A stretch of DNA of 64,000 bases from Eledone cirrhosa (GCA_964016885.1 OZ024745.1:52142001-52206000); one strand, 5' to 3'. Positions 3,931-61,405 are shown, numbered from the stretch's first letter. A program made the numbers and translations. Notes: generated by a model not told the origin, from the letters alone.

Positions 3931-4228
3931 TAAGATCAAAAGATGGTTAAAAGAGTTCCATGTATTTTACTATGCGCATTTCAAAAACAAATATCATCAT
4001 GCGATGACATTTGCGTTTTCGTCAGATAAAATAGGGAGACATGATATTGATTTTAAATCAATATATGTTGATTTAAAACTTCACTATTCACAAGTGTTTT
4101 TTAACCTTCATATCATGTCTCCCTATTTTATCTGACAAAAACGCAAATGTCATCGTATGATGATATTTGTTTTTGAAATGCGCATAACAAAATACATTGA
4201 ACTCTTTTAACCATCTTTTGATCTTATA
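3931..4228. mobile_element. Palindromic PLE pLTR-type insert between (TA)n tracts
   Basis: 3931-4060 is the reverse complement of 4068-4228 (right arm has ~35 extra nt). Each arm carries an HHR motif. A single related arm lies at 37303-37462. Confidence 0.85.
3963..4033 (-). ncRNA. Minimal type-I hammerhead ribozyme
   Basis: Minus strand reads TATTTTAT-CTGACGA-[AAACGCAAATGTCATC gcat GATGATATTTGTTTTT]-GAAA-TGCGCA-TA-GTAAAATA. The mirror copy at 4124-4194 (+) has a mutated core, CTGACAA. Confidence 0.85.
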
Positions 4229-4262
4229 TATATATATATATATGTGTGTGTGTATATCATTA

Positions 4263-5259
4263 TCTATAAAAGGCAGATTGTTGTTGTTGTGTGTGTGTAT
4301 GTTCTATGTTTATACATTTGCACAATTTCAAACCGATCCGACTCAACGTCTGTAAGAATGTTGTAAATGGTCTAAGGTAGGTCAAGGATTATTTATTTCA
4401 TTCAAACTCACCCACAATTATGGAAATAATCGATAAAACTAAATACATGACGCTTTACCCCTCTAATAGAATCTGATACCTCTCTCTACTCACCTTAAAA
4501 TTCAATAAAACTACATACATGCTTACAAACTTCCTTTAGGAACGCCGAAGAGAGAGATGGGGAGAGGGAGAGAGAACGTTTGTTTTTGAGTGTGGAACGG
4601 TCAAACATTTATTTACTTCAATGACAAAGAGAACTTATTACATTTCATACGAAACAACAATTATTCAAAAGCAACAGATATATTTATTCAATGAAAAAAA
4701 AATAGCGATAAATCTTTTTTTAAAACCTCTCAACGAACGTGGAAGAAAGAAGTATCAGTTTATTTACTATACACAATAATATATTCTATGAGGTCACTAA
4801 ACCTGCTAGAAACAGCAGGTGACTCTCCCTCATATCACACCCCTCCCTGCTGTCTTAAATTTAGAAAACGTATCCTCTATGAGGTCACTAAACCTGCTAG
4901 AAACAGCAGCTAACTCTCCCCCATATCACACCACTCCCTACTGTCTTAAATTTAGAAAACACACATTAGATAACCATGCAGAACAACTCCATCGCAGTTC
5001 TGTTGTTCGGCTGGCATCGTCTACGCGTGTCTTGTGCAAGTACTGTGAAACAATAAATTTCAACGCTTCTTTGCACAGAGATTATATCCATAGGCGAAAC
5101 TACAATTGTCACTGCTGGCGCAGCTCCTGCTTCGGCAGTCCAGGTCTGCAATTCATTCACCCAGTGCCTGGCAGACAAATAATAGCTGCCATAAAATGGG
5201 TGGTGCAACCTAACCTTGGTAACTTACTGACGCCGAGCAACGCCGGGCTTTAATGCTAG
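4263..5259 (+). mobile_element. Non-autonomous Helitron
   Basis: Starts with TC after an A and ends GCCGAGCAACGCCGGGC-tttaatg-CTAG before a T, the classic Helitron terminus with GC-rich subterminal hairpin. It has an internal ~90-bp tandem duplication (4785-4960). Confidence 0.75.
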
Positions 5260-5368
5260 TTTATATATATATATATATATATATATATATATATATATAT
5301 ATATATATATATATATATATATATGTATATATATATAAATGTATTTATACATGTATATATATATATAT

Positions 5369-5882
5369 ATGAAAACAGGGCGAAAGAGACGATTATTAGG
5401 AAGAAAAATAGATTTTTTTTCTTTTTTTATTTCTCTCTCTTTTTTGGGGGGGTTGGAAAATGATTAAAACGAAATTTTTTACTTTGTGTGAGGTGTTAAG
5501 GTATTAGTTGATTGTTTTTATTATTTAACAATCGCATTTATTTATCTATTTATATATTTAATAATTGTCTATTACCGGTTTCAGCATTTTTATGCATTAT
5601 CAAATGATAGGGAAATGTATTAGTGTGGTGTCACACATGTTAAAGAGAAGGCGCAGAAAGAATAATGATATTTACAAACAAGGTTTATGAAATGAAAAGA
5701 AAAAAGAAAAAGGAAAAAAAAAACGGGCGTAATGTAGAACATAAAAAGTTGATGTGAAAGAAAAAATAATGTTATTTACAGGCCTAGTTCTTGAAGTTAA
5801 GCAAATCAAAATGTGTTAATATAGCAACAGTGCTTATGTATTTTTGTTCCTAATAATCGTCTCTTTCTCCCTGTTTTCATAT
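5369..5882. mobile_element. PLE 3'-end insert with short inverted second arm
   Basis: 5369-5402 is the reverse complement of 5847-5881. TA runs flank both sides. An HHR-like motif lies on the minus strand at 5569-5610. Confidence 0.65.
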
Positions 5883-6302
5883 ATATATATATTTAACTCG
5901 TGTGCTTCCTCTTCACATTTTATTATTATTATTATTATTATTATTATTATATATAATTACGATTCTTTTCCAAATGATTTAATACTATAGAAGCAGTTCT
6001 AGTTCTTTATAAAAGAAAGATGACTATTCTATACTAACGTATTGAATGCACTTTTAAATGTGGTCATCTTGCGAGACCCAAAAGGAATCAATGCATTAAA
6101 TATATATATACATATATATAAATATATATATATATATATATATATATATATATATGTGTGTGTGTGTGTGTGTGTGTGTGTGTGTGTGTGTGAGAGAGAG
6201 AGAGAGAGAGAGAGTAAGAGAGCTTATGTATGTACCTTTGAATGTGAGTGCGTGTATATATGTATGTACATAGTAATCACGAGGAATAATGTTCCATACT
6301 AA

Positions 6303-7427
6303 TGCAATATTATAAGAAAATCATAAATAAAAAATTATAGAAATTTAATTGTTTCTTTAATCAGGCGAAATAAATATTTCTATACTCAGGTCGTCGTGAA
6401 GGACTACGTTGTATCAAATTCTAAGAAATATAGAGGGCCCTCTATATTTCTGTGCCCTCTATATTTCTTAGTGGCACTTATGCCTTATTTTTTCGTTTCA
6501 GTATTTCTTTCTTCGCTTTTCTTATGGGCGGGGTGGATTCTGAATTTATTTTTCCGTATTCTACCTTTACTTCGTACGAACTTTCATGTAGCTTGTTTTA
6601 GATCTTTTAGAGTTAGCATTAGTATATATTTTTCTCGGGACTCAGAATTATTATCTCGTACTATTTCACTTTGCTGCACTGGGTGGTTGCTGGCATTGTG
6701 CCCGGGATGGAAACCTTTATTGTTTATTTCGTGGTAGTCTCTTTAGTATTTTGGCCCCTTTTGTTGACCCGTCACTGTATCATTTACGTACTTATACCTC
6801 TTAAAAGGGTCCTTGCCTATATCGTCCCACCTAGTTCTTTTACTTATTTCGTTATTTCTTTATTTCTTTCTTTACTTCTTTCTTTCTTTCTTTATTTATT
6901 TATTCTAGCCTAATAATAGCTAGAGACCTAGGTCGTAGAATTTACTTTACTTTTTTCTTTACACTTATTTGCTTTTCTTCACTCTCAGTATTTTTTCTTT
7001 CCTATATATTTCTACCCCCCATTGTTCTACCTAACGTTCCGACTTCCTCCCCCTCCCCCTCCCCTGTATCTTCTTTGACCTCATGCACAGCTGTAGCTGG
7101 CACCACCAACGCTTGATTGGGTCTACTCCACCCCCTCCCCTCTTTCTCCTACTGGCAGGTTTAGCCACCATCTCCCCTACTAATTTGCAACCACAGAATT
7201 ACTACTGATTTTTGACAATCATTTTGACCATATATGGAATTACCCCTTGAGAAGATCGGCTATTTAAATACCAGGATACATTTTCATTTAGTCCAGAATT
7301 AGCCGTCGAAACGGCTTGAGATCAGCTGTCGGGGTCTTACTGGTTCCTATTACCCACTCTACTACCTCAAGTATTGAGTACTTTGGTGCGTTATGGTCCA
7401 CCTGGTTCCTTACCACATTTCCTTCGT
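6303..7427 (+). mobile_element. Probable PLE 3' UTR/pLTR fragment ending in (TA)n, with degenerate HHR at ~7241-7336
   Basis: CCCC-ttgagaaga-tcggcta...tagccgtc-GAAAC-GGC...GCT-GTC-GGGG. The tail ggttccttaccaca..tccttcgttatata is shared with 32345-32437 (+) and 59757-59910 (-). The left boundary is uncertain. Confidence 0.55.
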
Positions 7428-59322: not shown

Positions 59323-59351
59323 ATATACATACATACATATTTATGTCTATG

Positions 59352-59758
59352 CATATATATATATATATATATATATTTATATATATATATATATTTATGT
59401 ATATATATATATATATATATATATATATATATATATATATATATATATATATATATATATATATATGTATATGTATATATATATATATATATATATATAT
59501 ATATATATATGTATATATATATATATATATATGTATATATATATATATATATATATATATATATATATGTATATATATATATATATATATATATATGTAT
59601 ATATATATATATATATATATATATATATATATGTATATATATATATATATATATATATATATATATATATATATATATATATATATATATATATATATAT
59701 ATATATATATATATATATATGCATATATATATATGTATATATATATATATATATATAT
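59352..59758. repeat. ~400-bp (TA)n microsatellite
   Basis: Read directly; the longest of dozens of TA tracts. Confidence 0.95.
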
Positions 59759-60046
59759 AACGAAGGAGTTGTGGTAAGGAACCAGATGGACCATAACGCA
59801 CCAGAGTACTAAATACTTAGGGTAGTAGAGTGGGTAATAGGAGAAAGTATGACCCCGACGGTAGCGCTCAAGCCGTTTCGACGGCTATTTCTGGACAGTC
59901 CAGGGGTCATACTAAATATATATATATATATATATACATATATATATATATACATATATATATATATTAGGGTAAACATTGATGCAATTCAATTCAAGCA
60001 CTCAACGTACTTTTTCCACATAGGAGTGACGGAGTAAATATCGAAT

Positions 60047-61124
60047 AAGGAAAAGCGAAGTAGTTTCAGATGTTCAAGTCCTGTAATAATAATGCTGTGA
60101 TATATATTTCAGTGACGACACTGGCCACACTGTTCTGTGTGCGAGTGTTGTGTCATCATCATACAGCTTGTTGCATAATAAGGTTATGCTTCCGAGGCAA
60201 TCCAAATTGGATCGACATGGGTACTGTTGAATTGCGTGTTTTGGGGTTTTTCATCCGCTCCCTTGTGAGTACCAATTCACCCTCACCGGCGTGCGCAAGC
60301 GCATGTCCGAAGGAAGTTGACCATTAGCCACCGCAGATTTCAACGAAATTCGCTTAGTCAGTTCACCCACTCAGTCAAAACAATGGCCCACCAATGCCTG
60401 TACCATATTTTACTGCTACCCATCACGGCTGTGGCAGTCAGCCGAGAACCAGAGGGGATGGGAGAGTGTTAGTTTTTACAGGTCATAATACTACCCCTCA
60501 CTAAGCGTTGACAGTACGACTGACCTTATAAGGGAAAATAAACTTAATTCTAGGTATCATGGTTTTACGTTGGAAGTTAAGAGTGAGAGTTGGATATAAA
60601 AATTAAAATCCTAAATCAAATATCAGAAATTATAAATTAAACAATTAAGAAATTAACAATTAGAAATTAAAGAATTAAAAAAATTCTTTACTCACTTCAG
60701 TCTATATTTTTACTCACCTCAATCCGAATTTTTTTAATTCTTTAATTTCTAATTGTTAATTTCTTAATTGTTTAATTTATAATTTCTGATATTTGATTTA
60801 GGATTTTAATTTTTATTTCCAACTCTCACTCTTAACTTCCCACGTAAAACCATGATACCTAGAATTAAGTTTATTTTCCCTTATAAGGTGATGGTCAGTC
60901 GTACCGTCAACGCTTAGTGAGGGGTAGTATTATGACCTGTAAAAACTAACACTCTACCATCCCCTCTGGTACTCGGCTGACTGTCACAGCCGTGATGGGT
61001 AGCAGTAAAATATGGTACACTCGCACACAGAACAGTGTGGCCAGTGTCGTCACTGAAATATATATCACACCATTATTATTAAAGGACTTGAACATCTGAA
61101 ACTACTTCGCTTTTCCTTATTCTA
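60047..61124. mobile_element. Palindromic pLTR-type insert with asymmetric deletion
   Basis: 60043-60147 pairs with 61018-61122 and 60400-60685 pairs with ~60726-61018. 60148-60399 is missing from the right arm. HHR-like GCTGT-ATGATGA-stem II-GAAA-TATATA-TC-ACAGC at 60094-60167 (-). Confidence 0.88.
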
Positions 61125-61158
61125 TATATATATATATATATATAAATGTATATATATA

Positions 61159-61405
61159 TATTAAGACAGGGGGGAAGAAAAAATGGTTTCACTTGTGCTT
61201 TCAACAAATTTATTTTCTTCACAAAATCCAAAAATATTTTTTTTCCGGATTACAAAAAAAAAATTTTTCTTAAAAAAAATTTTTTTTTTAAGAAAAAAAT
61301 TTTTGTTTATAATCCGGAAAAAAATTATTTTTGGATTTTATGAAGAAAATAAATTTGTTGAAAGCACAAGTGAAGCCATTTTTTCTTCCCCCCTGTCTTA
61401 ATATA
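61159..61405. repeat. Near-perfect ~250-bp palindrome next to a TA run
   Basis: attaagacagggggg...ccggatta (61160-61252) is the reverse complement of taatccgg...ccccctgtcttaat (61310-61403). Confidence 0.88.

Follow-up and report, generated by a model that had tools for sequence, protein, structure and literature searches.

How a single insertion can leave two inverted copies of one element, and why such fold-back inserts sit in TA tracts, is the question raised by a 64,000-nt stretch of the Eledone cirrhosa genome (GCA_964016885.1, OZ024745.1:52142001-52206000; hereafter the window, with positions counted from its first base). The window (3.0-Gb animal genome; 33.5% GC; (TA)n tracts 6% of bases) carries many Penelope-like elements (PLEs), and an earlier note on it had listed about 16 palindromic inserts, nearly all flanked by TA, with the left arm minus-sense and the right arm plus-sense. 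Its explanation was that self-complementary (TA)n offers the same primer on both cut strands, so that two reverse-transcription events start from opposite sides and join at their truncated 5' ends, the palindrome being the normal product. Here, the inserts are described as head-to-head PLE insertions in (TA)n whose two arms begin at separate fixed sites and have template variants in common, likely because both nicked strands prime on the same RNA molecule.

Palindromic inserts and their polarity

Self-BLAST of the window after microsatellite masking recovered local inverted arms at all 16 listed positions, after which the inserts are named below, and at two unlisted ones, 33959 and 37119; arms at the listed positions are 38-1186 nt long and 82-100% identical. 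The palindromes are real, and the substitutions and indels between arms that had been cited against an artefact were confirmed in the same comparison. The TA flanking was also borne out, a tract of at least four TA units lying no more than 8 nt from 29/32 outer ends against 3.0% of other window positions, although this count is partly circular because tail-side boundaries were placed by the author at the TA edge. In families A, B, F, G, H, K and C, copies elsewhere in the genome end at the same positions. The outer ends without nearby TA are the right end of 19130, where a (CT)n run lies between, and both ends of 58888. The latter does not belong among the examples: in 15/16 copies its inverted arm lies at a near-constant offset with a near-constant spacer, so it is an inherited hairpin rather than a palindrome formed at insertion.

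The left-minus, right-plus arrangement was found in 14/16 listed inserts, which are all that could be oriented as inserts, and was never reversed. Orientation comes from a hammerhead ribozyme motif in 3931, 10200, 41722 and 56862 (and, by eye with one core mismatch, in 60047), from an open reading frame (ORF) in the window in 7676, 10200 and 20043, from an ORF in other copies for 29213, 42292, 31540, 37730 and 5369 (and, from one locus only, 61159), and from a tRNA head in 33411. Among 20 loci of the 19130 family no linked ORF or ribozyme was found, and this insert stays unoriented. The same polarity holds in samples of the genome, as the earlier note had predicted. For family A, the 189 ends listed on contig C1 up to 42.72 Mb include 44 head-to-head neighbour pairs within 5 kb, with about 1 expected by chance, and 5 plus-then-minus neighbours, which are mostly the outer sides of adjacent separate inserts; within 1 kb, head-to-head pairs outnumber the reverse by 14 to 0 in family F, 7 to 1 in B and 16 to 0 in H (first 100 matches each). 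The rule itself is not new, since head-to-head is already called the most frequently observed PLE arrangement (PMC3846280).

The double-armed form is the usual product, again as proposed. When 60 family A ends were picked by pattern, some of them belonging to the same insert, 46 were read as having an inverted partner attached (L042 spuriously, which leaves about 45/60), 5 were single arms running into TA, 8 ran into other sequence and 1 was unresolved.

One long-start and one short-start arm

The two outer ends of an insert are usually unlike, a feature that the earlier note overlooked: 11/16 inserts carry a one-sided extension of 38-145 nt. In family A the two ends lie 60 nt apart, and the genome holds 12,137 exact matches to the short end (S) and 10,496 to the long, tail-including end; tens of thousands of ends in one genome allow counts that rule out simple fold-back. 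Of the 44 head-to-head coordinate pairs of family A, 40 combine one long and one short end, where 22 would be expected if ends were independent (P=8e-9). Scored by sequence, long plus short pairs make up 76/79 inserts in A, 25/27 in B, 10/10 in F, 5/5 in G, 7/7 in K, 7/7 in C and 2/2 in D; in family H the pairing is clean in 45/62, the other 17 having one unclassifiable end and none scoring as same-end. Across families the start sites are 36-107 nt apart, and tails are correspondingly 36-107 nt long.

Arm reach shows that neither arm is simply a copy of the other. Of 78 family A pairs put through the parser, 1 failed and another 13 were set aside as separate inserts, as tandems or for a central gap above 40 nt, which left 60 long plus short and 4 same-end inserts, one pair being a local duplicate. 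Among the 60, the long-site arm extends further 5' in 15, the short-site arm in 25, and the two stop within 20 nt of each other in 20 (5.5 in shuffles); the corresponding figures are 10, 22 and 13 (3.6 in shuffles) for the 45 of these that were picked by pattern, 2, 16 and 4 for the 22 resolved B inserts, and 14, 11 and 20 for 45 H inserts. Long-site arms consisting of the tail alone occur in seven A loci (L040, L098, L101, L110b, L123, L047 and L049) and in 6/25 B inserts. Inspection of very short long-site arms against very short short-site arms in A gave no clear excess. A fold-back copy of a long-primed cDNA cannot outreach its template and a copy of a short-primed cDNA cannot hold the tail; therefore both arms were primed separately. 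To this extent the earlier picture stands, with both 3' ends outward in (TA)n and separately primed cDNAs joined at truncated 5' ends, either of which may be the longer and some of which do not overlap.

The two arms nevertheless resemble each other more than two random copies of a family. In 54 family A inserts with at least 60 shared columns (14,341 columns in all), arms share minor alleles at 24.7 per 1000 columns against 7.3 in mismatched pairs used as control, have 17 private alleles in common against 0, and are discordant at shared variants at 4.7 against 34.1 per 1000, CpG sites and a low-complexity stretch accounting for many of the discordances. Private changes confined to one arm are still present (12.4 against 17.9 in mismatched pairs), so later wholesale conversion between arms is unlikely. 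Shared minor alleles are likewise in excess in H (5.3 against 0.8), B (8.4 against 3.4) and C (29 against 15). The proposed two reverse-transcription events from opposite sides are thus upheld as two primings and not as equivalent or independent ones, given the long plus short pairing and the shared template variants; the two-primer idea is partly supported, in modified form.

Targets and central junctions add to this picture. An interrupted TA stretch is directly duplicated around 7/90 inserts, against 0.54 in shuffles, in lengths of 12, 12, 13, 14, 14, 27 and 30 nt, five of them 12-14 nt; a duplication is invisible in pure TA. At least some targets were therefore there before insertion and received staggered cuts. 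At most start sites the element continues inward with a few A/T bases matching the (TA)n target, those of family F being the exception. Of the 57 central junctions that were parsed, 26 lack extra bases; at least 2 nt of microhomology is present in 16 of them, compared with 26/141 simulated joins. Furthermore, raw short reads from three other samples contain family F joints, from other copies, between tail and short-site arm and between opposite strands (short side 22-28 nt), as well as loose family F ends in TA at both start sites.

Truncation points are not evenly spread: 5' hotspots lie 253-268 nt upstream of the S end in family A and about 65 nt upstream in B and F, and may mark RNA 5' ends. 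The family F hotspot sits immediately upstream of a weak hammerhead candidate.

Probable priming on one RNA, and its rivals

The most economical scheme that would link these observations, about as likely as not, begins with the GIY-YIG nuclease making staggered nicks about 12-14 nt apart within a TA tract. Priming by one target 3' end would take place at the downstream long site and so include the tail; the second 3' end would use the short site, which lies 36-107 nt upstream, usually with help from a few A/U bases of the RNA. The leading cDNA would undergo strand displacement by the trailing enzyme, both cDNAs would end independently or at the RNA 5' end, and host end joining would link the two cDNA 3' ends, often through 2-5 nt of microhomology. 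What was observed directly is the geometry, the pairing of ends, the lengths of the arms, the variants in common and the duplicated targets; a single RNA, a dimer, strand displacement and end joining are inferred. Self-complementarity of TA may help both primers pair with the RNA. As the cause of the geometry, which the earlier note had made it, it is not required, because PLEs outside TA show the same head-to-head unit, as in Adineta, where this unit has a one-sided tail and 9-10 bp target duplications (PMC3846280), and because, in vitro, an anole PLE nicks an ordinary target on both strands and extends each of them (PMC11167929). More tentatively, paired priming might be general to PLEs, with a protein dimer nicking both strands and copying one RNA twice from two fixed sites, the tail marking strand and site, and the hairpin being the normal product across at least two clades; tandem repeats headed by a tRNA would then hijack the route, tRNA processing replacing the hammerhead in freeing the template.

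Several results weigh against priming on a single RNA. Two RNAs from one active source locus would give the same shared variants. The variant signal is little or none in F and K, discordance at shared variants in H falls only from 15.9 to 10.5 per 1000, and the arms of L007, L056 and window insert 10200 differ at 5-8 shared variants; two templates as a rule, an idea prompted by L007, failed on the full family A set. Arm lengths in A are not rank-correlated overall (rho 0.12, P=0.36), and part of the equal-length excess stems from internal palindromes and from the hotspot at -253 to -268. The 5369 family has the same end on both arms in all 7 double-armed copies among 20 loci (L373-L392), three of these calls coming from short terminal matches read by eye; same-end inserts also occur in A (3/79) and B (2/27), two of them in the window, and an adjacent partner arm is absent at about a quarter of A ends. 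As to targets, a duplication is missing from 9/14 inserts that have an interruption no more than 12 nt away. Mirrored flanks were seen in 2/90 inserts against 0.34 expected (P=0.04); run-through mirror copying of the flank was rejected, the two cases being one chance match of two other element ends and one self-complementary interruption. Junction parsing carries much noise: it scores 40% of simulated blunt joins as insertions, and 2 of the 16 overlaps are artefacts. No empty site was seen in the fetched loci, where paralogous flanks turned up nothing but chance juxtapositions with other element ends across TA tracts, and no empty allele in reads, the other samples being reduced-representation libraries with almost no depth on unique flanks.

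The reading that ranks next, not far behind though less probable, comes nearest to the earlier idea: in an asymmetric protein dimer, one subunit would copy an RNA from the long site while the other copies a second RNA from the short site, both RNAs usually stemming from a single active locus. It accounts for either arm being longer, for non-overlapping arms and, if one source dominates per cell, for shared variants, and it fits both the discordant arms of L007, L056 and 10200 and the weak length correlation. The long plus short rule then requires an unexplained asymmetry, however, and neither joint stops away from the hotspots (-725/-716, -631/-624, -306/-314 and -281/-280) nor joint reach of both arms into the tRNA head of family H is predicted. 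It is unlikely that an antisense RNA folds back and primes itself, with a nuclease trimming one hairpin arm at the short site before integration (self-priming after PMC3846280; the tail as nuclease resolution after PMC8557442). Such a route does predict the shared variants, small loops and central microhomology, all of which were observed, yet the trimmed arm would have to be chosen at random and almost never be both or neither; meanwhile, tail ends coincide with in vitro reverse-transcriptase start sites on sense RNA (PMC11167929), family H arms stack at the 3' edge of the sense tRNA head, and 7/8 mismatches by the H short site are a target-like A on the short arm.

Fold-back of one cDNA from the long site, copied into the second arm, would explain shared variants and near-perfect hairpins (the 20/60 inserts with stops within 20 nt) and may hold for a subset; as a general route it is contradicted and improbable, since the short arm should stay inside the long one but reaches further in 25/60 A, 16/22 B and 11/45 H inserts, and tail-only long arms have nothing in common with the short arm. 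Equally little weight is given to repair of breaks in fragile TA tracts by DNA-level copying of existing palindromes via their TA flanks, with no reverse transcription. Copying would inherit the long plus short pattern and the variants, and the 58888 repeat did spread as a whole unit, but central junctions in A and H vary between copies, target duplications are present and 5' ends cluster at RNA-level landmarks. Least probable by far is an artefact of library fold-back or of assembly: hardly any reads covered the unique flanks of the insert tested, and no available long read spans a window insert, but substitutions and indels between arms, fixed long and short ends, target duplications and the family F joints in raw short reads of three other samples, from other copies, all speak against it. 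A miniature inverted-repeat or foldback DNA transposon was rejected because ends are asymmetric and centres variable in A, B, H and K, with a fixed centre only in 58888.

Priming of both nicked strands on one RNA has a counterpart in the twin priming of long interspersed element 1 (LINE-1), where a single RNA is primed by both target strands and microhomology joins the cDNAs into an inversion; there, the second primer falls internally at no constant position and the arms have no sequence in common. The proposed mechanism is alike and the structure is not, for here both sites are fixed near the 3' end and most inserts have arms overlapping over hundreds of bases, so a LINE-1-type structure was rejected.

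Published PLE features include an adjacent inverted copy lacking its 5' part, a tail frequently confined to one end and a bias towards (TA)n, and the mechanism behind the inverted insertions has been named as open (PMC8557442); antisense self-priming has been proposed for it (PMC3846280), and the same inverted form is described in Drosophila (PMC2377424). The inserts thus resemble the canonical unit of endonuclease-positive (EN+) PLEs (PMC8557442, PMC3846280, PMC2377424) in 5'-truncated copies, a head-to-head inverted copy, a frequent one-end tail, target duplication, a candidate hammerhead motif in the pseudo-long terminal repeat (pLTR) and (TA)n targeting, the last as in Neptune, Hydra and Naiad. 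Those accounts treat the tail as optional and attribute it to self-priming or to resolution by a nuclease, whereas here seven families hold almost strictly to one tail per insert, and both the reach of the arms and their variants suggest that one template was primed twice. With the Anolis Poseidon element PAc (PMC11167929) they share nicking and extension of both strands, two start sites that bound the tail, a predicted dimer and an AT-rich target; that paper does not tie the two strands to the two sites in one event, leaves second-strand synthesis open and reports no template-target homology, in contrast to the few A/T bases matching (TA)n at most start sites here (not F). No publication proposing two primings on one PLE RNA was found in literature searches, which covered listings and left subscription reviews and supplements outside their scope. 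The architecture itself is ordinary and known; the pairing counts, the same-template evidence and a tRNA-headed passenger were not found in print in these searches.

Element families of the window

That passenger is family H, represented by the insert at 33412-33690 (33411; S end left, tail of about 50 nt right). The repeat is non-coding; its full-length copies have a tRNA-like head at the start, which ARAGORN detected at the 5' end in 3/8 loci scanned, most of the head being missing in three of the five misses. Some copies are arranged in tandem, with units of about 270 bp and a spacer of 50 nt (L218, L219, L220, L222 and L229), and one 25-mer has 2,204 exact matches in the genome. The 5' ends of the arms accumulate at the 3' edge of the sense tRNA head, as tRNA processing or a reverse-transcriptase stop would give; both arms enter the head together with varied junctions (table 8,4/6,27; P=0.004), and at 7/8 mismatches beside the short site the short arm has a target-like A, as a primer would leave. 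Family H is likely a short interspersed nuclear element (SINE)-like repeat mobilised by PLEs. Like non-LTR retrozymes and tRNA-derived SINEs (bioRxiv 10.64898/2026.07.22.740005), it is short, non-coding, partly tandem at about 270 bp and apparently moved in trans; unlike what is described there, it combines a tRNA-like head, no hammerhead motif in a scan of the window copy, and PLE geometry instead of a LINE-type tail. Literature searches judged by listings turned up no publication on a PLE passenger with a tRNA head.

The coding families are PLEs. The ORFs of A, B and F align with Y.DD and Y[IV]G.T motifs, giving a reverse transcriptase with a C-terminal GIY-YIG domain as in an EN+ PLE; Pfam returned RVT_1 for family A weakly, below cut-off (E=2.9e-4), and GIY-YIG for the 20701 and 50966 ORFs. 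Family B has a 712-aa ORF in L195 and family F one of 758 aa in L205. A scan for type I hammerhead motifs was positive in A, C and D, weak in F and negative in B, E, G, H and K; an Rfam scan of the window at E<=1 gave no hammerhead, only spurious microRNA matches, so the ribozyme calls are those of the author's motif scan. One further type I motif lies on the plus strand at 44137-44202, outside all detected palindromes. Both A-type ORFs have a CX4CxxC linker and two core Cys in GIY-YIG, and by motifs (a CX2-5CxxC linker and two Cys in that core being the features sought) family A (10200, 56862) would be of Neptune or Nematis type, between which these motifs do not separate. Families B (29213, 42292) and F (31540) have RWR, DKT, CxCX5C and one Cys in the GIY-YIG core, and CxCX5C is present in the 7676 and 20043 fragments; judged by the features given for Hydra, namely an RWK-like motif, DKT, a CxCX5C linker and no CCHH (PMC8557442), these four are probably Hydra-clade types.

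The fullest copy is family A insert 10200, whose near-full-length plus arm (11397-15657) has the Neptune/Nematis-type linker and an ORF in two frames (11273-12550 and 12463-15222). It ends at the short site, as does its 5'-truncated minus arm (10201-11385), making it a same-end exception whose arms differ at 8 shared variants. A type I hammerhead motif of the pLTR lies at 15456-15500 on plus, with a mirror copy at 10356-10400 on minus, and a partial tandem, as expected of a pLTR that overlaps the ORF start, places 11397-11441 again at 15613-15657; read-through tandems occur in L021/L024/L026 and L116. In family A insert 56862 the minus left arm (56864-57096, hammerhead motif 57019-57063 on minus) has the S end, and the plus right arm (57099-57384) starts at the long site, with a 60-nt tail at 57325-57384. 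A diverged A-type PLE on minus (52749-56286; 59% protein identity to family A) has TA on both sides and no inverted partner. Long Asn-rich inserts within two A-type ORFs (12137-12550 and 55705-56269) resemble those described in Adineta Penelope elements.

Among Hydra-type inserts, 7676 (7677-9793) has a long minus arm with an ORF at 8316-9641 and a short plus arm with a 116-nt extension, and 20043 (20044-22585) a minus arm with a broken ORF (20698-22396; GIY-YIG E=1.5e-4) and a 38-nt plus arm with a 145-nt extension. Family B is present as 29213 (29214-30623; left tail, right S end) and as the same-end exception 42292 (42293-43980; tail on both arms), and family F as 31540 (31536-32310), with a 67-nt left tail and a flanking 14-nt direct duplication of an interrupted TA tract. 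The remaining inserts are those of family C (3839-4224; 94-nt left tail, hammerhead motif 3963-4033 on minus), the 5369 family (5371-5878; same end on both arms, longer copies with a GIY-YIG ORF on minus), family G (37732-38387; 40-nt left tail), family D (41723-42238; hammerhead motif on minus in the left arm, right tail of about 100 nt) and family K (61162-61438; S end left, 36-38-nt tail right). The unoriented family E insert 19130 (19127-19930) abuts (CT)n on its right and has two end types about 42 nt apart in other copies. Insert 60047 (59968-61122) has a 75-nt left extension, a degenerate hammerhead motif on minus and an inner hairpin (60399-61019) also seen in another copy.

Unlisted insert 33959 (33956-35209) consists of a minus arm with a GIY-YIG-like ORF (34491-35024) and a short plus arm with a 50-nt extension. 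The other unlisted palindrome (37084-37716) has a 35-nt extension on one side and, at its centre, a TA tract with a single family C arm (37301-37461). The inherited internal hairpin of 58888 (58889-59320), with its fixed spacer, belongs to an AT-rich repeat (58420-59320; copies L357-L372) that has its 3' end in TA and spread as a whole unit.

The two-primer route, if true, would also explain the growth of TA tracts and their collection of nested inserts. In L011, L093, L097, L106, L107, L109 and L110, the TA flank of an older PLE end has often received a new insert, giving mixed-family clusters. A single-arm repeat of about 135 nt anchored in TA recurs in the window at 7288-7427, 32340-32435 and 59760-59896, and the same end of this repeat adjoins many family A, B and F inserts at other loci.

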